NCBI GenBank assembly: GCA_965199755.1
Contig: CBDASZ010000001.1
Span: 1-64,000, forward strand
Direction of reading: 5' to 3'
DNA from: an uncultured candidatus Porisulfidus sp.
GTDB lineage: Bacteria > Pseudomonadota > Gammaproteobacteria > Poriferisulfidales > Poriferisulfidaceae
Length of the DNA: 64,000 nt
This document shows positions 8,381 through 19,650 of the stretch, in pieces (positions within the stretch are counted from its first letter, which is position 1; every line of letters starts with the position of its first letter). The notes beneath the pieces are model-generated. The model was not told where the DNA came from and ran no database searches. It was given only the letters and a program-made list of their open reading frames with translations. The position numbers and the translations under genes are program-made.

Positions 8381-8415
8381 CATAACAGCCATTTATATTG
8401 CCCTACAGAAATATC

Positions 8416-8898
8416 ATGCAAGGTGATCCTGCCGTCATCGAATGTCTGAACCGAAGTCTGGCAAGTGAGCTGCGCTCCATCAATCAGTACTGGCTGCACT
8501 ACCGCATGCTGGAAGATTGGGGGTTTGACAAACTTGCGGCCAAGGCACGCGAAGAATCCATGGGCGAGATGGTCCATGCGGATCATTTCGTCGAGCGCAT
8601 CCTTTTCTTGGGCGGACTTCCAAACCTGCAGACCCTGGATCCCCTGCGCATTGGTCAAAATATCCGGGAGGTCTTGGAATGCGATCTGGCCGCGGAAGTA
8701 GAGGCACGGACAATGTATCAGGAAAATCGCCGGGTCTGCGACAAGGCCGCGGACTATGCGTCAATGACTCTGTTCGATACATTGATCGCGGAAGAAGAAG
8801 GTCATATTGATTTTCTGGAAACACAACTCAAACTGGTTGATGAGCTGGGCATGGAACGCTACAGCTTGCTACAGGCTTCAGGATCGGAGCAAGCATGA
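8416..8898 (+). CDS. bfr: Bacterioferritin
   Basis: MQGD N-terminus, INQYWLH, EESMGEMVHAD (ferroxidase residues and heme-ligand Met region), EEEGHIDFLETQL. Confidence 0.96.
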   Translation: MQGDPAVIECLNRSLASELRSINQYWLHYRMLEDWGFDKLAAKAREESMGEMVHADHFVERILFLGGLPNLQTLDPLRIGQNIREVLECDLAAEVEARTMYQENRRVCDKAADYASMTLFDTLIAEEEGHIDFLETQLKLVDELGMERYSLLQASGSEQA

Positions 8899-9566: not shown

Positions 9567-10907
9567 TCAATCACGTACAAACTCCAATCGCTGCCCCATA
9601 GCCTCTGGCGCAACCTTTCCGTCAGCATAAGCCAGATTGCCGGACACCCAAGTGCGCTCAATGCGGGCGTGCAACTCCTGCCCCTCAAACGCAGACCAGC
9701 CGCACTGGTGCAAAACCTCTTCGTTGCGGACCATCCACGCCCCGGACAAGTCCACCAACGCAAGATCTGCGAAATACCCTTCGCGCAGAAATCCCCTCTC
9801 ACGAACGCCATAGCACAAGGCCGGAGCATGCGCCACCTTGTGCACCGCGTGCGGCAATTCCAGCACACCCTGATGCACCAGTTCCAGCACCATCGGCAAG
9901 GCATGCTGCGTAAACGGCAACCCGGCCGCCACCTGTCGGTAGTCACCTTCCTTCTCTGACAGCAGGTGCGGCGCGTGATCTGTTGCGATGACGTCAATAC
10001 GATCCTCCAGCACGGCGGCACGTAGCGCATCGCGGTCCGTTTGCTCCTTGATCGACGGGTTGCACATGATGCGGGTGCCGTGTTGCGCGTAATCCTCTTT
10101 TGAAAACACCATATGGTGCACGCAGACTTCCGCGGTGATGCGCTTGTCAGTGACCGGCCCCGGTGCGAACTGCGCCAGTTCCTCAGCCGTGGTCAGATGC
10201 AGCACATGCAACCGCGCGTCAAACTTGCGCGCCAGCTCCACGGCCTTGGAGGAAGAGGCCCAACACGCCTCGCGGCTTCGGATCTGCACATGACATTCGA
10301 TCGGTATCTGTTCACCATAGCGTGCGACATGCCGCTCCAGTTCCTCCTCAATCATCGGCGTATCTTCACAATGCGTCGCGATCAGCACCGGCGATTCAGC
10401 AAACATACCTTCAAGCGTGACCGGATCGTCTACCAGCATATTGCCGGTAGAGGCACCCATAAAGATTTTCAGTCCGCAGACCTGTGTCGGATCAAGTCGC
10501 TGGACTTCCTCCAGATTGTCATTGCTCGCGCCGAAATAAAATGCATAGTTGGTGTGCATGGCCCCTTCGGCGCGCGCGATCTTTTCCTGCAGGCGTTCAC
10601 GTGTGATCACCGGCGGCTTGTTGTTGGGCATGTCCATGACACTGGTCGTGCCGCCCGCAACCGAGGCGCGGGATTCCGAACGAAAGGTGGCCTTGTGCGG
10701 CTGGCCCGGCTCACGGAAATGCACCTGACCGTCGATCATGCCCGGCAGCAGATGCAGCCCGGCCGCGTCAATCACTTCATCAGCCTCTTCATGCGCAAGG
10801 TCGGAGCCGATTTTCTCGATACGCTCATTGCGAATGAGCAGATCCGTTTCAAACACTCGTCCTTCATTGACGGCAGTGGCATTGACGATTAGACAACTCT
10901 CGGACAT
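9567..10907 (-). CDS. pyrC: Dihydroorotase (amidohydrolase superfamily)
   Basis: PGMIDGQVHFREPG, DMPN, KIFMGASTG, HCED, ATDHAPH motifs. Confidence 0.85.
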   Translation of the reverse strand: MSESCLIVNATAVNEGRVFETDLLIRNERIEKIGSDLAHEEADEVIDAAGLHLLPGMIDGQVHFREPGQPHKATFRSESRASVAGGTTSVMDMPNNKPPVITRERLQEKIARAEGAMHTNYAFYFGASNDNLEEVQRLDPTQVCGLKIFMGASTGNMLVDDPVTLEGMFAESPVLIATHCEDTPMIEEELERHVARYGEQIPIECHVQIRSREACWASSSKAVELARKFDARLHVLHLTTAEELAQFAPGPVTDKRITAEVCVHHMVFSKEDYAQHGTRIMCNPSIKEQTDRDALRAAVLEDRIDVIATDHAPHLLSEKEGDYRQVAAGLPFTQHALPMVLELVHQGVLELPHAVHKVAHAPALCYGVRERGFLREGYFADLALVDLSGAWMVRNEEVLHQCGWSAFEGQELHARIERTWVSGNLAYADGKVAPEAMGQRLEFVRD

Positions 10908-10962
10908 GGTGCTACTCTGCGGGGAAGTGAGTCACATTTTAGGGCACAGCCACAGACCGACA

Positions 10963-10991
10963 CTGACCGGCGCACTGCCCTTGAGTAAAAT
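10963..10991 (+). promoter_or_regulatory. Candidate sigma70 promoter for tRNA-Gly and the downstream operon
   Basis: CTGACC-N17-TAAAAT ending 11 nt before the tRNA. Confidence 0.4.
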
Positions 10992-11002
10992 TCCAATCCC
11001 GC

Positions 11003-11076
11003 GCGGGCGTAGTTCAATGGTAGAACTTCAGCTTCCCAAGCTGATAACGAGGGTTCGATTCCCTTCGCCCGCTCCA
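11003..11076 (+). tRNA. tRNA-Gly (anticodon CCC)
   Basis: GCGGGCG acceptor stem pairing with CGCCCGC, anticodon arm TCAGC-TTCCCAA-GCTGA, GGTTCGATT T-loop, encoded CCA. Confidence 0.97.
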
Positions 11077-11089
11077 GCGCAACCGTTTT

Positions 11090-12187
11090 ATGACCGACAC
11101 CACCGACGCCCTTGAGTTGACCGAAGCCGAAGCCTTTATGCGCAGCGTACTGCAGCGCGTGGCCACCGGCCCGGAGTACAGCAAGGATCTGCCGCAGGAA
11201 GAAGCGCGCCGCGCCCTCGCCCTGATTCTGGATGAGGAGGTCGACGACGTGCAGGCCGGCATCTATATGATCGCATTGCGCATGAAGCGTGAGACGCTGG
11301 AAGAAAACATCGGCTCCCTGCAAGCCTTGCTCGACCGAACCCAGCGCGTCACCGCCAATGTCCCGGAAGTGATCGACATTGCGGAGCCTTACGACGGCTT
11401 TTTGCGCAACTTGTTGATGGGTGCCTTTCTGCCAGCGGTTCTGGCCGCCTGCGGCAAACCGGCACTGTGTCACGGTGTCTCCTCAGTCGGCCCCAAGTTC
11501 GGTGCCACCGCCCGTCAGGTACTGACCGCCTGCGGCATGGCCCCGGAGCGCCCGGTGGCAACGGTCGCCGCCCAACTGGAAGACCCCAACTGCGGCTGGG
11601 GTTATGTTGACCAGTCGCAATTCTGCCCCAAATTGCATGCCCTGCAAACTTTTCGCACTCGTATTGTCAAGCGCCCGGTGCTCACTACCGTGGAAGTGCT
11701 GCTATCGCCCATCCGCGGACAGGATGCCACCCATTTCGTCACCGGCTACGTGCACAAGCCCTACCCACCCGTCTACGCGCATCTGGCGCGCGCCACACCA
11801 TTTGACTCCGCGCTGCTCGTGCGCGGCGTGGAAGGCGGGGTATTTCCGTCGCTGCGTCAGGCCGGTCGCGCCTACGGTTTTCACGGCTCCGAGCCGGAAA
11901 CCCTGTGGGAGTTCCACGCGCAACAGTTGGGGTACGAACATGACTGCCGCGCCGCGCCATTGCCGGAATCAGACATGGAGGCCGACGCCATCGCACAAGC
12001 CGCCGCCGATGCCGGGCGCGCCGCGCTTGATGATCAAGTGGGTCCCGCGCGCGACAGTCTGCTGTACGCCGCGACCTTGATTCTCGCGCATTTGCATCGT
12101 GACCGCGACCTCTCGAAACACTTTCCAACCGCGCAGGACGCCATTGCCAGCGGTCGCGCCCGTACCGCCTTTGAGGCCGCCTTATGA
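11090..12187 (+). CDS. Anthranilate-phosphoribosyltransferase-like (glycosyltransferase family 3, YbiB/TrpD2-like) protein
   Basis: TrpD-like N-terminal helical domain (QAGIYMIALRMKRET), PYDG, GYVHKPYP and RGVEG. It lacks the canonical TrpD GTGGD motif. Confidence 0.75.
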   Translation: MTDTTDALELTEAEAFMRSVLQRVATGPEYSKDLPQEEARRALALILDEEVDDVQAGIYMIALRMKRETLEENIGSLQALLDRTQRVTANVPEVIDIAEPYDGFLRNLLMGAFLPAVLAACGKPALCHGVSSVGPKFGATARQVLTACGMAPERPVATVAAQLEDPNCGWGYVDQSQFCPKLHALQTFRTRIVKRPVLTTVEVLLSPIRGQDATHFVTGYVHKPYPPVYAHLARATPFDSALLVRGVEGGVFPSLRQAGRAYGFHGSEPETLWEFHAQQLGYEHDCRAAPLPESDMEADAIAQAAADAGRAALDDQVGPARDSLLYAATLILAHLHRDRDLSKHFPTAQDAIASGRARTAFEAAL

Positions 12188-12612
12188 ACAACGATGCCAT
12201 CGATCTGGATTTACAAAGCGGGATCGCGGCCTTCGCGGCCAAGCATTTCGCGCAAGCGCACAAGTTGCTGACGCCGCTGGCGGAAGCGGGCGAGCCGGAA
12301 GCGCAGTACCGCTGCGCGATTATGTGCCAAAACGGTCTGGGCTGCGTGGTCGATGAGGCGCGCGCCTTCACCTGGATGACGGCGGCCGCCGAGGCCGGCT
12401 TGTCGCTCGCGCAACATGGACTGGGATTCATGTACATGGAAGGCGAATGCACCGCCGCTGATGGTGCGAAAGCGGTGCACTGGTTCGAGCAAGCCGCCGC
12501 GCAAGGACTGATCGGCTCACTGACCACGCTGGCGATGATGTACGAGGAAGGCAAATTGATCCCACAGGACGTGGAACGCGCCCGCGAACTCTACCGCCAG
12601 GCAGGATTCTGA
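12184..12612 (+). CDS. Sel1-repeat (TPR-like) protein
   Basis: Three repeats of the type AQY..AIM...G.G...D...A..W...AA..G; no signal peptide. Confidence 0.88.
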   Translation: MNNDAIDLDLQSGIAAFAAKHFAQAHKLLTPLAEAGEPEAQYRCAIMCQNGLGCVVDEARAFTWMTAAAEAGLSLAQHGLGFMYMEGECTAADGAKAVHWFEQAAAQGLIGSLTTLAMMYEEGKLIPQDVERARELYRQAGF

Positions 12613-12616
12613 CATC

Positions 12617-13660
12617 ATGCGCCCCTCACAACTCAGCCGTATTCTGGAAGAAGAGTTCCGCAGCGCCACGCGCGGCATTCACACACCGGTGATGATCTGG
12701 GGGCCTCCAGGCGTCGGCAAATCACAGATTGTCGCGCAGATCGCAGCGCGGCACGATGCGGTGATGATTGATATCCGACTGTCGCAGATGGAGCCGAGCG
12801 ATCTGCGCGGGATTCCCTTTCGCACGGATGACGTGGTGGACTGGGCGGTCCCGGCGATGCTGCCGAATGCAAAACGCCACGGCGCATCCGGCATCCTGTT
12901 TCTCGACGAGATCACCTCGGCCGCACCGACCGTATCCGCGGCCGCCTACCAACTGATTCTGGACCGCCAGCTCGGCCACTATCAGGTACCCGAAGGCTGG
13001 GTGATTTTTGCCGCGGGCAACCGTCAGGGCGATCGCGGCATCAGTTATGTCATGCCAGCGCCACTGGCCAATCGCTTTTCGCATTTTGAGATTGAACCGA
13101 ATCTGGATGACTGGGTGCGCTGGGCGGTCGCGCAACAGATCGACGAGCGCGTGATCGGTTTTCTGCGTCTGCGCCCGGAATTGCTGTTCGACTTCGATGC
13201 TGAACACAATCCCACCGCCTTCGCGTCACCACGCTCCTGGGAGTTCGCCCATCGCGCACTGCAGAAATTCGACGGCGACACCGTACTGGTGGAAGCCCTG
13301 CAAGCCTGTATCGGCCCGGCCGCGGGCATGCAATTGCACGCCTTCGTACAACACGCGGCGGAATTGCCGGATCTGGATGAGATTCTGGCCGGCAAAGCGG
13401 TGCCACCGCCGGATTCCGTCGATCTGCAATACGCCATTGCAGCGGCGCTGGTCAGCCGCGCCGTACGCGCTGCCGGACAAGAGCAGCTAACGGAAGTGTT
13501 GGGGCCGATTCTGAATTACGCCAGTCAATTGCCGCAACGCGAAGTCGGCGTGATGCTGGTCTGCGATCTGTTGCGCTGCGTCGGGCAGGAACAGGTGTTT
13601 GCCGCGCCGGAGTTTCAGCCCTGGGCCGAACAGGTGGCGGATCTGCTGCTGTACGAATAA
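12617..13660 (+). CDS. MoxR-related AAA+ ATPase
   Basis: Walker A GPPGVGKS, Walker B ILFLDE, AAGN sensor I, LANRF arginine finger, SPRSW sensor II. Confidence 0.9.
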   Translation: MRPSQLSRILEEEFRSATRGIHTPVMIWGPPGVGKSQIVAQIAARHDAVMIDIRLSQMEPSDLRGIPFRTDDVVDWAVPAMLPNAKRHGASGILFLDEITSAAPTVSAAAYQLILDRQLGHYQVPEGWVIFAAGNRQGDRGISYVMPAPLANRFSHFEIEPNLDDWVRWAVAQQIDERVIGFLRLRPELLFDFDAEHNPTAFASPRSWEFAHRALQKFDGDTVLVEALQACIGPAAGMQLHAFVQHAAELPDLDEILAGKAVPPPDSVDLQYAIAAALVSRAVRAAGQEQLTEVLGPILNYASQLPQREVGVMLVCDLLRCVGQEQVFAAPEFQPWAEQVADLLLYE

Positions 13661-14793
13661 TGCCGCAGGCGAAGGATCCGGCCAGTCGACTGGCGCAAGC
13701 GCGCGCCCGGCTGGTGTTGGATCGCCCCTTTCTGGGCTCTTTGGTGCTGCAGTTGCCGCTGGTGGAAGCTGGCGACTGGTGTCATAGCACCGCCACGGAC
13801 GCTCGGCGTCTGTACTACAGCCCCCCTTACATCGACAGCCTCAGCAATGCGGAGGTCCAGTCCGTGCTGTGCCATGAGATGCTGCATTGCGCCCTGCTGC
13901 ATCTGATGCGCCGTGGTCGCCGCTCGCGCAAACGCTGGGATGTGGCCTGCGATTACGCGGTCAACCATCTGTTACTTGCCGAAGGCATGGTGCTACCGCA
14001 AGGCGCGCTGCACCAGCCGCTGTTCGCCAACATGACGGCGGAAGAAATTTATCCGTGCCTCGACGAGATGGAAGATCAGCGCCCTCAGGATCTGCATCTA
14101 TACAACGGCGCGCCGGCAGAGGCGGACGCTTCGGAAGCAACACCGCAAGAGGCTTCAATACAACCGGACGCCTTGGCGTCCACATGGCAAGCGCGTGTTG
14201 CGCGGGCGCTGGATTCGGCGCGGCAGCATGGCCAGTTGTCGGCATCGTTCGCACGCCACCTCTCACCGCAGCTCAATCCGCGACTGCCGTGGCGGCATCT
14301 GCTCTCGCGGCACGCCAGACAATGCGCCCGCGATGACTACAGTTATCTGCGCCCGTCCACGCGGCGCGAAGGTCCGGCCATTTATCCGCGTCTGAGTACG
14401 CGGGCGATCGATATGGTTGCCGCGCTGGATGTCAGCGGCTCACTCTCCGAATCCGAAATCAGCGAATTCCTCGATGAGGTCAGTGCCATCAAGGGGGCCT
14501 TGCGCGCACGCATCACGCTGCTCGCTTGTGACCGGGAACTGCAAGGAGATCGCCCGCAGGTGTTCGAACCCTGGGAGCCGCTGCGAATGCCGCCAAGCAT
14601 CACTGGCGGTGGCGGCACCTCGTTTTTCCCGGTGTTTGACTGGGTCTCCCGACAGGATCACCCGCCGAATCTGCTGATCTATTTCACCGACGCCAAAGGT
14701 GCCTGCCCGAAGACCGCGCCGCCCTATCCGGTGCTGTGGCTGGTCAAAGGCCGCGGCCAGTTGCCGTGGGGCGAACGCATCCAGTTGAACTGA
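13660..14793 (+). CDS. Putative metallopeptidase (HExxH) plus VWA-like domain protein (DUF2201-like)
   Basis: TATD, HEMLH, WDVACDYAVN, MIDAS-like DVSGS, GGGGTSF and IYFTD motifs; TAATG overlap with the ATPase stop. Confidence 0.85.
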   Translation: MPQAKDPASRLAQARARLVLDRPFLGSLVLQLPLVEAGDWCHSTATDARRLYYSPPYIDSLSNAEVQSVLCHEMLHCALLHLMRRGRRSRKRWDVACDYAVNHLLLAEGMVLPQGALHQPLFANMTAEEIYPCLDEMEDQRPQDLHLYNGAPAEADASEATPQEASIQPDALASTWQARVARALDSARQHGQLSASFARHLSPQLNPRLPWRHLLSRHARQCARDDYSYLRPSTRREGPAIYPRLSTRAIDMVAALDVSGSLSESEISEFLDEVSAIKGALRARITLLACDRELQGDRPQVFEPWEPLRMPPSITGGGGTSFFPVFDWVSRQDHPPNLLIYFTDAKGACPKTAPPYPVLWLVKGRGQLPWGERIQLN

Positions 14794-14797
14794 CTCC

Positions 14798-15868
14798 ATG
14801 CTGAGCGAACCCGACCTGCTGCGCCTCAATGTATTGATGAGTCAGTCGCTTGAAGCGGTGCGCATCGACGAAGGCCGCATGCAACTCGAAGCGCTGACAT
14901 CGCAGGGGGAAGCGCAGGTGCCCTTGCACCCCAGTGGGCGCACTGGGGCTTATCTCAAGGAAGTGCGCGCATGGCTGTCCACACACGTACTCGGCTCACC
15001 GGGCGGTTACCCGCTGTATATCCGGCGCTGGACACGCATGGGTCAGGCGCGTGATGGCTCGCTGGAGAAACTGCTGCTGTTGGGCGACCCGGAAGCGGTC
15101 GCCGCCGTCGTGCACGCACCGGGACTCACGGAGGAGTTGGCGCGGCGCGCCTGGTGGGTGGATCCGCACGCCGAACATGCACGCCGAATGCTGGAGCACC
15201 CGGACATTGCCGGCAGTCCGTTTGGTGAGGATCTGGTCGCATTTCTGCTTGAGTTTCTGCCGTTTGAGGAAGAGCCGCGCAACGTGGTGGCCTCGCTGTG
15301 TCAAATGCTGCGCTACGGCCATCTCGACGAAGAGCACCAGATGGAATTGTGGCGACGCGCACAGCGACAATCCGCTTACGCCGCGGGGTTTCTGACCGCC
15401 GGCAGCCACTGTCTCCCGCTCGAACGCGATGCGCATTCACGCCTTCAAGGCCAAGATCATCCCGGTGTGCTGTGGGGACGCCTGTCGTCGGTGCTGGAAG
15501 CGCACGGGCAGAACTTTTTCGCCACCGCACGCATGGCATTGAAGCGCCCGCCGAATCAGGATGTCACAGTGGCGATTTTCAACGCCATCGGCACCGGCTG
15601 CGCCTTGCCGGGTCTGAACGCTTGCCCGCGCAGTTTCGAGGAGATCGAAACACAGGTGCGAGAGATTGAGCGATCTGAAGACTGGGAGGAGGATTCCGAA
15701 TGGCAGGACATGCGACATTCACTATTGTGTCTGGCGCACGTCAGCGAAAGCCTGCTGGATCCGATTTTTGGCATCACCGATGCGGTTGGCTCCGTAATGC
15801 GCAAGCGCATTGAGCCTGTGGTGAAACCCTTGCTCGCGCACCTCGACACCCTGCTGGACGATGCGTGA
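14798..15868 (+). CDS. dsrS: DsrS-like protein (reverse dissimilatory sulfite reductase accessory)
   Basis: LRLNVL...RIDE...VLGSPGGYP...RRWTRMGQAR...LLLLG.PEAV...ELARRAWW and C-terminal DA.GS.MRKRIEP, recognised from recall of DsrS sequences. Confidence 0.8.
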   Translation: MLSEPDLLRLNVLMSQSLEAVRIDEGRMQLEALTSQGEAQVPLHPSGRTGAYLKEVRAWLSTHVLGSPGGYPLYIRRWTRMGQARDGSLEKLLLLGDPEAVAAVVHAPGLTEELARRAWWVDPHAEHARRMLEHPDIAGSPFGEDLVAFLLEFLPFEEEPRNVVASLCQMLRYGHLDEEHQMELWRRAQRQSAYAAGFLTAGSHCLPLERDAHSRLQGQDHPGVLWGRLSSVLEAHGQNFFATARMALKRPPNQDVTVAIFNAIGTGCALPGLNACPRSFEEIETQVREIERSEDWEEDSEWQDMRHSLLCLAHVSESLLDPIFGITDAVGSVMRKRIEPVVKPLLAHLDTLLDDA

Positions 15869-16709
15869 AGATCTGCGCATGACGTTGCCGAACGGGCGCA
15901 TGCTGGCGTACGCCGAGTACGGCGACGCGACGGGCTGGCCGGTCTTTTGCATTCACGGCACACCGGGCTCACGGCATTTGTATGCGGTTGCTGATGAGTC
16001 GGCGCGGACGCAACGACTGCGCCTGATCGCGCCGGACCGACCGGGCTTTGGTGACTCTGATGATTGTCCCGACTGGGGATTCACCGAAATCGCCGACGAC
16101 CTTGCGCAACTTGCCGCACATCTGGAGATTGAACGGTTTTCTGTGCTGGGCTTCTCCGGGGGCGGCCCCTACGCGGCTTATGCCGCACGGGCCTTGGCAC
16201 CACGGGTCGCTCGCCTCGTTCTGCTAAGCGCCTACGCGCCCGGCGAACGCGCTGGCCTCGCGCAACAGATCATGATGAGTCTGGGGCGGCTCAGTCCCTC
16301 CGCCATGCGGCTCACCTCTCAGGCGATCGCCTCTATACCCATGTCTCTGGCGAAGCGAATCATCTGCGTGGGCGTCAACCGCAGTGATCAGAAGATTACC
16401 CAAAATCCGCAAATTCGTGACAGTCTGACCGTGGGCCTGCAGGCCGTGCGCAATAATCCGTATGGCGTCGTGGCGGAAGCGCAGTTGTTCGCGCGACCTT
16501 GGCAACTGCCGGAAATCACGCACCCGGACCCGCCCGTGTGGATCTGGCACGGTCTGGAGGATCGCATCGTGTCCGTGCGCGCCGCGTTGCACTATGCTCG
16601 CGTCTTCACACGCGCGCGTCTCACGCTACTGCCAGGCACCGGACATTACTGGGGGCTGGAGCATGTCGATCAGGTGCTCGATGTGCTGCGTTATGATGAA
16701 GGAAGCTGA
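15861..16709 (+). CDS. Alpha/beta fold hydrolase
   Basis: HGTPGS, DRPGFG, GFSGG nucleophile elbow, WHGLED, GH. Confidence 0.88.
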   Translation: MREDLRMTLPNGRMLAYAEYGDATGWPVFCIHGTPGSRHLYAVADESARTQRLRLIAPDRPGFGDSDDCPDWGFTEIADDLAQLAAHLEIERFSVLGFSGGGPYAAYAARALAPRVARLVLLSAYAPGERAGLAQQIMMSLGRLSPSAMRLTSQAIASIPMSLAKRIICVGVNRSDQKITQNPQIRDSLTVGLQAVRNNPYGVVAEAQLFARPWQLPEITHPDPPVWIWHGLEDRIVSVRAALHYARVFTRARLTLLPGTGHYWGLEHVDQVLDVLRYDEGS

Positions 16710-16722
16710 TACAGAGAAGTTC

Positions 16723-17220
16723 ATGCGTCAATTGATTCTTGTGCGGCACGCCAAATCCGACCGCAGTGACTGGTCGCTTTCCGATGTGGAACGACCGCTG
16801 GCACCGCGCGGGGTACGCGACGCGCCGGACATGGCGCAGCGACTGGCGGGACTGCAAGACGGATTGGATGCGATATACAGTTCGGTAGCGCGCCGCGCGA
16901 TGGAGACGGCGGAATATTTCGCGCAGACCTTTGATATTGCCGCCTCAGACCTGCATTTGCGCCATGATCTGTATACTTTTTCGCCGTACGACCTGGTACA
17001 GGCTCTGGGTGAACTGGATGATGCGTTTACGCGCATTGCCGTGTTCGGACACAACCCCGCTATCAGCGGCGCTTCGTCCTATCTGGGGGATACGGATCTG
17101 GGCGATCTGCCAACTTGCGCCGTCGTCAGGCTGCAGGTTGATACAAAATCATGGAAGACGCTGGCACCGCGCGCATGTACGCTGCTTGAGGTCGATACGC
17201 CCAAGCGGTCGGCAGGATAA
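16723..17220 (+). CDS. sixA: SixA-type phosphohistidine phosphatase
   Basis: LILVRHAKS, RPL..RG, SVARRA.ET and GHNP motifs; possible alternative start at 16693. Confidence 0.8.
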   Translation: MRQLILVRHAKSDRSDWSLSDVERPLAPRGVRDAPDMAQRLAGLQDGLDAIYSSVARRAMETAEYFAQTFDIAASDLHLRHDLYTFSPYDLVQALGELDDAFTRIAVFGHNPAISGASSYLGDTDLGDLPTCAVVRLQVDTKSWKTLAPRACTLLEVDTPKRSAG

Positions 17221-17331
17221 CAGCCCCATACTGACAGGAGAGAAAAACCAAGTACAGGGCTGTCCCTAAACGAAAGAGCGGATCTAACGGATCACTGACC
17301 CGCCCCTCAAAACCGGAAGTAATACTGCTGC

Positions 17332-19650
17332 CTAGAACGAGTTCTCCATGCGCAGGCCAATCATGGCAGTGCGCTCCTTGTTCGGGCGCGCACCATACGG
17401 CTGGCGCGCTACGATATCTTCCTGATCAGTCAGGTTGGATACCCGCGCAATCAGCGTGATATTGCTGCCGATGCGGTAACTCGCGCTGACATCAATCGTG
17501 AAACTCGATTCTGTCTTGTTGAAGTTGTCACACGGGGATTTCACGCAAGTCTCATCGACATAGTTGCCGCTGACATTCAGCGTCCAGTCGGATGCCTCCA
17601 GACCCAGGCCCAGGCGGAGCTGGTGCTCCGGGATATAGGGAATGGCATCGCCCTTGGACACCGTGCCGAAGAAGTCCGACTCAAAGTCCGTATCAAACTC
17701 GGTATCCATATACGTGTAGGTAATCGACAGCGGCATCAGCAATGATTCGCTCACGGCAAAATCCGTGGTTATCAAGGCTTCCAGCCCTTGCACCGTCGCG
17801 GCGTCCCCGTTGAACGCATCTCCCACCGTGCAACTCGCACCAGACGACGCGGTGCATTCGCCGATCAGGTTCTTGTAGTCGCTGTAGAAACCGATGATTT
17901 CTCCCTGTAACTGGTGGTTGGCATAACGGAAGCCGAATTCGTAGTTGTCCGCCTTCTCCTCGTCAACGCCAGGCGCATTGCTCGGCGCGCTAAACCCCTT
18001 GTGGTAACCAGCCAGCAGCGACAGGCTGTCGCTGGCCTGATACATCATGCCAAAGCCCGGCAGCCAGACTTCTGTTTTGTTCTCGCGCCCGTCCCGATAG
18101 ACTCCGCGATCACTCATCGGCTGAGCATCCGTGCATTTGCTTTTCTCCGTCGGGTCCACGCTCACGGGATTCGCGCAAAACCGGGAACGCTTCTGGTCAA
18201 TGTCTTCATAGCGCACACCGGGCGTGACCACCCAGTCGCCCCATTCAATCCGGTCGTACAGATAGATCGCGATGGCCTCGGCCTCCTGCAGCCGGTTATT
18301 CGCCGCGGAATGTCCCGTGGTGCCCTGGTCTTCCAGTACCAGCCGACCGTTGATTTGGGTATAGGCGTCCAGACGCTGGATGCGATCTTCCTCATCTTCG
18401 TGGTAGCGAACACCGAATTGCAATTCGTGCGACGCAGGACCCGTCTCCAGATCCCAATCGAACACTGCTTGCACGCCGCGCGAGAAGTACTCGCGCTCAT
18501 TGGCTTTCAACTGAATGCCGCCAGCTTCCGTATCCCGTGTCCCATCCAGAATTTCCTTGGCCTGTTCCGGGGTGAGGCAGACATCGCCTTCGCAAATATC
18601 CTTGCCCCGGTTGATTTTGTCGATCACACCGCCCCAACTCTGCTTCTTGAAAGTGTCCGCGTTGGTGGTGCCGGTGATGTCCAGACCTTCTGTCTTGTAC
18701 CAGTTGCGATAGTGCTCGTTGTTGTAGACCGTCACAGACAAGCTCGCCGTATCGCTCGTCTGGAACCGGTAGGTGAGAATCTGCTGATCGTGCTGGGTTC
18801 TGATTCCATCCAGCGCTGATAAGCCGTAGCGTCGATACGGGTCAGCGCGAAAATCCGTCTCGGTCAGTCCCATGTAGCTTTGGTTGGAACCTTGGTCCGC
18901 CACATGAAATTTCAGATCCACGGAGTGGCGCGAATTGGAGGGCGCGTAACTCATTTTGAGCATGTAATCCTGAAGACTCAGACCGGTATTCGTGGTGTTG
19001 TTATCGACATTCTGGAAGCCGTCCGAACCCCACTGATGCGTCTCCACCAAAAATCCGACGCCACTGTCCGAAGTCCCGCCCGCGTAACCGTGCATGCGAT
19101 AGTCGGAATCCCCGCCGATCTCTGTCATGATCTGGCTTTTCATGTCCTGCGGTATGGGCGTGGAAATCATATTGAACGCGCCACCGATGGTGTACGGACC
19201 TTGCGTGATCGCCGCGGGGCCTTTCAGCACCTCAATGGCGTGCATGCGCCCGGCGGTCGGGAAGTAATAGGCAGCAGGCGCTGAATACGGTGCCGGAGCG
19301 ACCAGCACATTGTCTTCCAGCAAGGTGATGCGGCTGCTGCGCTCGGTGGCGACGCCGCGAATGCTGATATTGGGACGCAACCCGTAGCCGTCTTCAAGTT
19401 GCACGGAGACTCCAGGCACCTGACGCACAATATCCTGAGTGTCGGCATAGTTGAATTTGAGCAACTCCTCCGAACTGATGTAATGCGCCGAACCGGTCAT
19501 CTCCTGAGCGCCCGACATGCCATGCACGATCATGACTTCCGGTGACGGCGAATCGTCTTCCTCGGTCATCGCTGGCCCATACGCCAACATCCCCAGTAAG
19601 CTCGCTCCCGCATATATCGTGGTGGCCCTAATGTGTTTATAAAAATTCAT
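17332..19650 (-). CDS. TonB-dependent outer-membrane receptor (FecA-like, iron uptake)
   Basis: Signal peptide, plug domain (EDGYGLRPNISIRG...IEVLKGP...GG), beta-barrel, terminal Phe; Fur box upstream. Confidence 0.92.
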   Translation of the reverse strand: MNFYKHIRATTIYAGASLLGMLAYGPAMTEEDDSPSPEVMIVHGMSGAQEMTGSAHYISSEELLKFNYADTQDIVRQVPGVSVQLEDGYGLRPNISIRGVATERSSRITLLEDNVLVAPAPYSAPAAYYFPTAGRMHAIEVLKGPAAITQGPYTIGGAFNMISTPIPQDMKSQIMTEIGGDSDYRMHGYAGGTSDSGVGFLVETHQWGSDGFQNVDNNTTNTGLSLQDYMLKMSYAPSNSRHSVDLKFHVADQGSNQSYMGLTETDFRADPYRRYGLSALDGIRTQHDQQILTYRFQTSDTASLSVTVYNNEHYRNWYKTEGLDITGTTNADTFKKQSWGGVIDKINRGKDICEGDVCLTPEQAKEILDGTRDTEAGGIQLKANEREYFSRGVQAVFDWDLETGPASHELQFGVRYHEDEEDRIQRLDAYTQINGRLVLEDQGTTGHSAANNRLQEAEAIAIYLYDRIEWGDWVVTPGVRYEDIDQKRSRFCANPVSVDPTEKSKCTDAQPMSDRGVYRDGRENKTEVWLPGFGMMYQASDSLSLLAGYHKGFSAPSNAPGVDEEKADNYEFGFRYANHQLQGEIIGFYSDYKNLIGECTASSGASCTVGDAFNGDAATVQGLEALITTDFAVSESLLMPLSITYTYMDTEFDTDFESDFFGTVSKGDAIPYIPEHQLRLGLGLEASDWTLNVSGNYVDETCVKSPCDNFNKTESSFTIDVSASYRIGSNITLIARVSNLTDQEDIVARQPYGARPNKERTAMIGLRMENSF

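Follow-up and report, generated by a model that had tools for sequence, protein, structure and literature searches.

What does a gene for DsrS do about 270 kb away from the dsr operon, directly behind the genes of an AAA+ ATPase and of a protein with a VWA domain? The locus that raises this question lies in the window, by which we mean the whole stretch analysed, i.e. the first 64,000 nucleotides (nt) of contig CBDASZ010000001.1 (assembly GCA_965199755.1) from an uncultured Candidatus Porisulfidus sp. DsrS has counted as one of the dsr genes ever since the operon was first reported. Grimm et al. in 2010 are said to have found the dsrS phenotype of Allochromatium vinosum to be a slower oxidation of stored sulfur, mild and non-essential, and to have suggested a post-transcriptional role. 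In the excerpted text of the A. vinosum genome paper the function of DsrS stands as unresolved. A first-pass annotation of the window had read a row of seven genes (numbered here as in Table 1) as an undescribed accessory system of sulfur oxidation, in which DsrS would be the client or adaptor of a dedicated AAA+/VWA-peptidase machine with a Sel1-repeat protein as scaffold. The coupling of DsrS to the AAA+/VWA pair stands, by gene order as well as by joint presence and absence across genomes; the Sel1 scaffold and a conserved peptidase do not. We consider it rather probable that DsrS (gene 5), the AAA_5-type ATPase (gene 3) and the DUF2201 VWA protein (gene 4) form one remodelling or maturation module serving the oxidative (reverse) Dsr system, rDsr in what follows.

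The protein encoded at 14798-15868 had been called DsrS from its letters alone, and the call holds. NCBI lists three relatives (P0085, P0091 and P0118; 44-45% identity, E about 1e-89) under the name DsrS, most of the other named ones among the 120 relatives listed being 'hypothetical protein', and the nearest Atlas cluster is the 'Sulfur oxidation protein DsrS family' (score 0.97). In two of the loci retrieved (L105 and L107) a homologue of gene 5 (42% and 40% identical, respectively) ends a complete dsrABEFHCMKL..OPN row. In L105, the one whose gap was scanned, an IscA-like open reading frame (ORF) of 111 amino acids (aa), dsrR, stands between dsrN and DsrS. The order dsrN-dsrR-dsrS of A. vinosum is tabulated in table 9 of PMC10892978, on the excerpt of that article. 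Also, of the 108 genomes found to have DsrS, 98 have DsrB and two more have DsrA, so that 100 of 108 have one or the other. From the named relatives, the position after dsrN and dsrR and the near-confinement to rDsr genomes taken together, gene 5 is, as judged by homology to these relatives, a DsrS orthologue. A hidden Markov model check of each gene, which the first-pass annotation had asked for, gave Pfam domains for genes 1-4, 6 and 7, and for gene 5 no Pfam or NCBIfam model matched. It may be noted that in three loci (L034, L036 and L059) DsrS lies within a shared row of seven ORFs. The row scanned in L036 (7369-13984) reads rluC-like, HAD phosphatase, sppA-like S49 peptidase, DsrS, a 179-aa protein of no family, and EgtB-like and EgtD-like ergothioneine genes.

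For gene order, the closest 80 of 406 DsrS-encoding stretches were searched by tblastn with the window proteins. The DUF2201 gene lies directly 5′ of DsrS in 72 of the 80 loci, because of which the arrangement is not one of chance. The ATPase gene was detected in 64 of the 80, collinear with DUF2201, and in 8 of the 16 misses the contig ends inside the DUF2201 match or at most about 300 nt 5′ of it. Where DsrS lies elsewhere the pair is kept as well: the ATPase gene adjoins DUF2201 in 19 of 20 such loci. In the twentieth (G318, a single contig of 1.5 Mb) the ATPase orthologue (E 3e-184) is found elsewhere and the trio is kept at three distant places. The neighbours of the 20 unlinked pairs were just lineage-specific HDOD, NUDIX, thioredoxin, GGDEF and M48 peptidase genes, the ORF caller being noisy in GC-rich DNA. 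Several genomes bring these genes to the dsr operon itself. One strand of G380 carries dsrABEFHCMKL..OPN, an IscA-like dsrR, the ATPase gene, DUF2201 and dsrS in this order, and in its family-mate G231 DUF2201 is directly 5′ of DsrS, about 13 kb from dsrB. In G012 DsrS is at a similar distance from dsrB, the place of DUF2201 not being among those listed. G275 and G019, whose dsr operon is laid out like that of A. vinosum, have the ATPase and DUF2201 genes away from it, and the same would be expected in A. vinosum. DUF2201, DsrS and dsrA are contiguous on one strand in G240, and G188 and G200 have the TrpD-like gene, Sel1 and DsrS 8-10 kb 5′ of dsrA with the ATPase-DUF2201 pair elsewhere.

The same gene order bears on an explanation in which DsrS and the pair are parallel accessories that never touch, serving one lifestyle (e.g. 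the use of stored sulfur) at different targets and being gained or lost along with it. Of the 108 DsrS-positive genomes, at least 51 have DsrS and DUF2201 no more than 3 kb apart, a lower bound since 69 DUF2201 match rows fall outside the listing. In the other 57 they were counted apart, 8 with the two genes far apart on the same contig and 49 with the genes on different contigs or with the place of DUF2201 not listed, as parallel accessories would have it, and Sel1 is an example of another gene that tracks rDsr. Yet one family has the pair precisely in the space between dsrR and dsrS, and a truncated DsrS is found in a genome that has no pair. Also, the joint distribution of DsrS and DUF2201 given next is tighter than the link of either to DsrB. 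We therefore regard mere coexistence as unlikely and keep the single module as the favoured reading.

Presence and absence were counted in 401 genomes drawn evenly from the same class, with DsrB scored in 400 of them. DsrS was found in 108 genomes, a DUF2201 relative in 114, both in 106 and DsrB in 121. On dividing the 121 DsrB-positive genomes, 96 have both DsrS and DUF2201, 23 have neither, 2 have DsrS alone and none has DUF2201 alone. DsrS and DUF2201 thus share 106 genomes with 2 and 8 unshared; against DsrB, DsrS has 98 shared with 10 and 23 unshared, and DUF2201 has 96 shared with 18 and 25 unshared. The coupling of DsrS to DUF2201 is therefore tighter than that of either gene to DsrB. 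Full-length DsrB was seen in two copies at different places in eight genomes (G113, G176, G202, G214, G272, G312, G346 and G355; identity to the query 73-86%). The Sulfurifustis paper likewise describes an additional dsrAB that lies outside the operon.

The few unshared genomes were looked at one by one. In one of the two with DsrS alone (G076) the DsrS match spans just residues 164-352, contains one stop codon and follows an intact Sel1 gene. This remnant (7443-8532 of L117, which is G076:C9:124000-140000) lies in a genome with DsrB, where neither the ATPase nor DUF2201 was found by profile search, as if DsrS had decayed once its partners were lost. Of the eight genomes with DUF2201 alone, G251 (72% complete) has an orthologue-level match with the ATPase gene beside it. 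The other seven, one of which (G308) is flagged unpublished, have weak matches (E 1e-11 to 1e-69; 35-42% identity in the three that were fetched). Contrasts among close relatives go further. In each of six genera (g29, g102, g154, g197, g215 and g228) one DsrB-positive species has both genes and another has neither, and since the positive species of g102 and g215 carry the two genes unlinked, neither a single deletion nor a missing contig can explain the joint absence. Profile searches for the ATPase and DUF2201 in two of the negative species, G284 (100% complete) and G369 (97%), found neither. Ten families show both states. These within-genus contrasts are the strongest argument that the genes depend on one another and not on rDsr only.

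Several observations weigh against the module as we read it, or against its tie to Dsr. The 80 loci used for gene order are the nearest relatives of the window, which makes its gene order look commoner than it is. Genomes that share ancestry do not count as independent cases, and all those sampled belong to one class. When 111 genomes were drawn at the level of the phylum, the DsrS profile matched just G000 and one gammaproteobacterium, with none DsrS-positive outside the class, so that this draw has no power to test the coupling there. The second genome with DsrS alone (G367, a draft of 330 contigs) has an intact DsrS, and neither the ATPase nor DUF2201 was found in it. The trio is missing in 23 of the 121 DsrB-positive genomes, the 1.1-Mb G187 and G347 among them; rDsr as such can hence do without the module, an accessory by this count, which fits the mild dsrS phenotype attributed to Grimm et al. 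In the other direction, 10 of the 108 DsrS-positive genomes gave no DsrB match (DsrA was found in 2 of 5 rechecked, and 7 of the 10 are less than 90% complete). The full five-gene cluster is present in G167, in which neither DsrA nor DsrB was found. In that genome (100% complete, 40 contigs; locus L109, G167:C40:258000-276000) the TrpD-like gene, Sel1, the ATPase gene, DUF2201 and DsrS have a DsrC-like gene nearby. Either its dsr operon is unassembled or the module is able to exist without DsrAB. Finally, ATPase-DUF2201 pairs of 35-42% identity occur among housekeeping genes in genomes without DsrS and DsrB, so the pair as a family is not Dsr-specific. At these sites (yidC-mnmE/response regulator, or integrase/acs) no third partner was found.

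Some of these facts would suit a trio that acts in a process outside Dsr, related to sulfur or not (e.g. persulfide trafficking or a stress response), and is merely common in the same organisms. G167, with its cluster and a DsrC-like gene but neither DsrA nor DsrB found, is one, the seven-ORF rows that enclose DsrS in L034, L036 and L059 are another, and the pairs outside Dsr organisms are a third. Against this, DsrB or DsrA is present in all but 8 of the 108 DsrS-positive genomes, the genes are embedded in the operon in two families, and DsrS stands canonically at the operon end in others. A process outside Dsr is accordingly the least credible of the alternatives, and service to rDsr remains our preferred reading.

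The first-pass annotation had called gene 3 a MoxR AAA+ ATPase, of which the AAA_5 branch with intact Walker motifs stands and the strict MoxR label does not, since AAA_3 (MoxR proper) scores 18 bits, under its cut-off of 27. In 58 of 58 orthologues, whose mean column identity is 78%, Walker A (GPPGxGKS; G29, P31, G32, G34, K35 and S36), Walker B (D97 and E98) and N135 are invariant. The nearest solved chains are midasin AAA modules, NorQ and CbbQ, the similarity to NorQ and CbbQ being weak (E 0.003-0.009). By domain and motifs gene 3 belongs to the AAA_5 branch, and a hexameric ring with ATPase activity is predicted for it.

The DUF2201 protein has an N-terminal HExxH peptidase-like domain, an acidic disordered linker and a C-terminal VWA domain with a metal-ion-dependent adhesion site (MIDAS). 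Both motifs are intact in the window protein (HEMLH at 72-76, DVSGS at 257-261), as are the ATPase motifs, just as the first-pass annotation had noted. The model of the protein (pLDDT 77.5) shows a helical N-terminal domain and the disordered acidic linker, and Foldseek pairs its C-terminal part with integrin I/VWA domains (probability 1.00, best E 7e-4, TM on the target 0.41-0.49). The linker, at about residues 135-170 between the peptidase-like and VWA domains, is acidic, of low confidence and variable in length, because of which tblastn split many of the orthologues in two.

The two ends of this protein are conserved to a different degree. All 65 orthologues keep the MIDAS residues D257, S259, S261, T320 and D344. 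Position 72 is His in 49 of the 65 and position 73 is Glu in 50; 16 orthologues have another residue for the first His of HExxH, for its Glu or for both (KQ in 14, QQ in 1, RE in 1). In all 16 loci DsrS is directly 3′, so that catalysis is dispensable for keeping the genes together, at least in those lineages. The 15 orthologues with Gln for Glu (the 14 KQ and the one QQ) come from the group of loci L016-L063 and could go back to a common origin. With these replacements HExxH is not conserved across the orthologous group. The 'peptidase' of the machine first proposed is thus doubtful as its conserved activity.

These counts also bear on proteolytic control, in which the HExxH domain would be an active zinc peptidase that, with the ATPase unfolding, cleaves DsrS or a Dsr protein and so sets the level of the pathway. 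HEMLH and a downstream His (H81) are intact in the window protein and in 49 of the 65 orthologues, and H76, H81, C41, C77 and C97 are invariant. DUF2201_N, itself a 'putative' peptidase domain, matches at 153 bits, and the SprT-like model at 24.6 bits comes just under its cut-off of 25.6; a search by sequence found no solved relative. Yet 16 of the 65 lack the first His and/or the catalytic Glu while the MIDAS is invariant and DsrS stays directly 3′ in every one, which argues against proteolysis as the conserved activity. Control by proteolysis is in our estimate improbable, and remodelling or maturation stays the function that we favour for the module.

For DsrS itself we obtained a model of high quality (pLDDT 93, pTM 0.89) with a short N-terminal helix and a three-stranded sheet followed by an all-helical solenoid. 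Foldseek of this model against the PDB gave no match at E<=0.001, and a wide VIA-align search reached at best Z 8.0, to designed and natural helical repeats, a level common for helical proteins. An enzyme-like fold could not be named for DsrS, the matches being just generic helical repeats. Its alignment has an invariant SPGGYP...RWTRMGQA loop (67-84) and an acidic LPFEE (154-158), and it has no invariant Cys or His and no conserved porphyrin- or metal-binding motif. Because of the helical solenoid, the invariant loop and acidic stretch and the lack of invariant Cys or His, DsrS looks built for binding, or as an adaptor, more than for catalysis. That LPFEE may be a ligand of the MIDAS is speculation. 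A complex prediction for the DUF2201 protein with DsrS (both given as alignments) scored 0.00 (mark 0.32) and has no bearing either way.

In the mechanism that we infer, its binding steps, direction of action and target alike, by analogy with MoxR-type AAA+/VWA pairs such as CbbQ-CbbO, NorQ-NorD and RavA-ViaA, the ATPase ring would do the mechanical work, and the VWA protein would couple to the ring while the metal site of its MIDAS grips an acidic residue of a partner. DsrS may be the specificity adaptor or the first client and would bring a Dsr component (DsrAB, DsrL and DsrC are candidates) to the motor. The outcome would be assembly of that component, maturation or loading of its cofactor, or the freeing of a complex that has stalled. 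Regulated proteolysis is a less likely conserved function, since the catalytic residues are missing in a quarter of the orthologues. A bolder form of this is that DsrS is the substrate-recognition subunit of an unrecognised three-part AAA+/VWA 'Dsr activase', which seizes DsrAB or DsrAB-DsrC in order to put in or mend the siroamide/iron-sulfur cofactor, or else to remove a DsrC that has stalled. We put this forward tentatively, as something that could well be wrong. If true, the activase would keep the reverse sulfite reductase running as CbbQO does Rubisco, and DsrS would have its first biochemical role.

The Sel1 protein, which shows no obvious signal peptide by eye, was present in 57 of the 80 loci. 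With an orthologue threshold of E<=1e-30 (paralogues score 1e-20 or worse), it was found in 92 of 107 DsrS-positive genomes and in 1 of 30 tested genomes without DsrS and DsrB (G308, G039, G141, G296 and G395 being outside this test). It was found as well in 17 of the 23 DsrB-positive genomes without DsrS and DUF2201, the 1.1-Mb G187 and G347 included. It therefore tracks rDsr generally and is not a dedicated part of the trio, which removes it as a dedicated scaffold. We see it as a separate, previously unrecognised rDsr-linked gene that is kept even in 1.1-Mb genomes. In the latter (G187:C2:303001-303402 and G347:C6:73072-73473) it lies at most about 16 kb from dsrA and the TrpD-like gene.

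The TrpD-like gene is looser still. It occurs in 39 of the 80 loci, of which just the 13 closest have it on the same strand and the remaining 26 have it divergent; in L035 and L075 the order is TrpD-like, Sel1, DsrS with neither the ATPase gene nor DUF2201 between. At E<=1e-30 it is present in 89 of the 401 genomes, i.e. in 51 of the 108 DsrS-positive and 57 of the 121 DsrB-positive ones, and 28 of its 89 hosts have neither DsrS nor DsrB (three of these, G039, G141 and G296, are flagged unpublished). It is a frequent but optional neighbour and not core. Of the five genes first grouped together, the TrpD-like one thus drops out of the module. The motifs GTGGD and KHGN bind the substrate of TrpD. 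In gene 1, GTGGDG and KHGNR of the true TrpD align to EPYDGF and CHGVS. The TIGR01245 score is 65.7 bits against a cut-off of 199, that of the YbiB model 94.7 against 185 and that of PRK07394 144 against 287, and the true trpD of the genome is at C2:367142-368101 (377 bits). Gene 1 is accordingly rejected as the anthranilate phosphoribosyltransferase TrpD, being below the TIGR01245 cut-off with the TrpD motifs replaced. It is also rejected as the YbiB equivalog, forming a separate subfamily though YbiB is its best solved relative (E 2e-13).

The two genes 3′ of DsrS are additions in this symbiont lineage, in line with the first-pass annotation, which had taken them for later add-ons. The hydrolase follows DsrS only in the 13 closest of the 80 loci (L003-L015). 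The SixA-like gene is in the same 13 of 13 and in none of the other 87 loci searched. Gene 7 has an RHA motif and is a member of the His_Phos_1 superfamily; for a SixA phosphohistidine phosphatase proper its TIGR00249 sixA score is too low (43.4 bits, cut-off 74.5).

The coordinates of the row agree with those of the first-pass annotation: seven genes on one strand, the first beginning 13 nt past a tRNA-Gly, with overlaps or gaps of at most 13 nt (Table 1). From gene 1 to gene 7 the junctions are a 4-nt overlap, a 4-nt gap, a 1-nt overlap, a 4-nt gap, an 8-nt overlap and a 13-nt gap, the last assuming the most likely start of gene 7, ATG 16723 (MRQLILVRHAKS...). The promoter match in front of the tRNA is the sole one in 10500-17800, and as shuffles give a mean of 2.1 there is no enrichment.

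Table 1. Features of the gene row and its upstream region in the window (lengths in aa for proteins)
Feature	Positions	Strand	Length	Evidence	Place in the row
Sigma-70-like promoter match	10963..10991	+		CTGACC-17-TAAAAT, 9/12 consensus only	just 5′ of the tRNA
tRNA-Gly (anticodon CCC)	11003..11076	+		ARAGORN	13 nt 5′ of the gene row
Gene 1, TrpD2/YbiB-like paralogue of anthranilate phosphoribosyltransferase	11090..12187	+	365	Glycos_trans_3N 47 bits	loose neighbour
Gene 2, Sel1-repeat protein	12184..12612	+	142	Sel1 85.1 bits (Pfam cut-off 30.7), three repeats	rDsr-associated in its own right
Gene 3, putative AAA+ ATPase of AAA_5 kind (CbbQ/NorQ/midasin-like, MoxR sensu lato)	12617..13660	+	347	AAA_5 36.5 bits (Pfam cut-off 22)	core
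Gene 4, DUF2201 protein	13660..14793	+	377	DUF2201_N 153 bits, DUF2201 (VWA-like) 80 bits	core
Gene 5, DsrS orthologue (by homology)	14798..15868	+	356	homology and gene position	core
Gene 6, alpha/beta hydrolase	15861..16709	+	282	Abhydrolase_1 74 bits	lineage-specific add-on
Gene 7, SixA-like histidine phosphatase	16723..17220	+	165 (from ATG)	His_Phos_1 39.5 bits (cut-off 21.7)	lineage-specific add-on

All seven genes are single-copy in the genome, which is that of a sulfur oxidiser and measures 1.39 Mb in four contigs (98.9% complete). Judged by DsrS, its nearest public relatives are sponge-associated 'Candidatus Porisulfidus' genomes. The dsr operon lies on the same contig at about 285-297 kb and contains DsrA (616 bits), DsrB (534 bits), DsrEFH, DsrC, a DsrL-like protein and a DsrN-like amidase. 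On searching the window by tblastn with 13 proteins from this dsr region, no match was obtained at E<=1e-3, in agreement with the earlier remark that the window has no core dsr genes. Directly 3′ of the dsrN-like gene is an ORF of 437 aa (L083 3729-5042 on the minus strand, equal to C1:283728-285041) with no Pfam or NCBIfam match, and no clear dsrR was seen there. The flanks of the row are unrelated to sulfur: a ferritin-like protein (8398-8898) and an amidohydrolase (9567-10907, minus strand) just before the tRNA on one side, and a TonB-dependent receptor (17332-19650, minus strand) directly after the row on the other. Metatranscriptome contigs of two runs (pieces of 150-330 nt) match within the TrpD-like, Sel1, DUF2201 and hydrolase genes (11766-12530, 13994-14281 and 16022-16237). 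One piece crosses the TrpD-like/Sel1 junction; DNA carry-over is possible, and a single transcript is not demonstrated by these contigs.

A full-text literature search, with most subscription journals and all supplements outside its coverage, gave no paper in which DsrS or rDsr is connected to an AAA+/VWA pair or to the Sel1 protein described here. In the literature searched the system is thus undescribed, as had been supposed. That DsrS is almost always co-inherited with the ATPase and its VWA partner suggests that the three are one helper machine for sulfur-oxidising enzymes. The near-perfect joint presence and absence and the pair inserted between dsrR and dsrS make the open question of DsrS experimentally tractable in genetically workable organisms. 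The work also gives a first physiological context for the uncharacterised DUF2201 family.

It remains to compare the locus with what is known. A. vinosum DsrS (Alvin_1265) is of the same family by name and by the position after dsrN-dsrR in relatives, and the family is found almost only in rDsr genomes; unlike A. vinosum dsrS, the gene here is about 270 kb from the dsr operon and behind the ATPase/VWA pair. Gene 1 resembles E. coli YbiB (TrpD2) in having a TrpD fold without the phosphoribosyl-pyrophosphate motifs of TrpD; it differs from YbiB in scoring below the equivalog cut-off and in a distribution partly tied to Dsr. For the core genes the comparison is with MoxR-type AAA+/VWA pairs such as CbbQ-CbbO (Rubisco activase) and NorQ-NorD (maturation of nitric oxide reductase). 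In RavA-ViaA, CoxD-CoxE, BchI-BchD and CobS-CobT, too, an AAA+ motor and a VWA/MIDAS partner act on one enzyme or cofactor, and the chelatases have a third subunit as well, which binds the substrate. The locus is like the chelatases (BchI-BchD, CobS-CobT) in its three-part make-up, a likeness of organisation and not of sequence membership. Unlike the large chelatase subunits, DsrS has 356 aa in helical repeats and no conserved porphyrin- or metal-binding motif. As in CbbQ-CbbO and NorQ-NorD, a gene of AAA_5 type adjoins a VWA gene with complete MIDAS, and the pair is tied to one enzyme system. The ATPase, with 347 aa, is longer than the solved NorQ (268-270 aa) and one CbbQ-family chain (281 aa), another CbbQ chain having 380 aa. 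The VWA protein, unlike CbbO and NorD, is short (377 aa) and has an HExxH peptidase-like domain; to our knowledge CbbO and NorD have no such domain. DsrS, the third conserved partner here, has no counterpart in CbbQ-CbbO or NorQ-NorD. What would be new at this locus is that a remodelling AAA+/VWA pair from an uncharacterised family has a third partner specific to it, DsrS.

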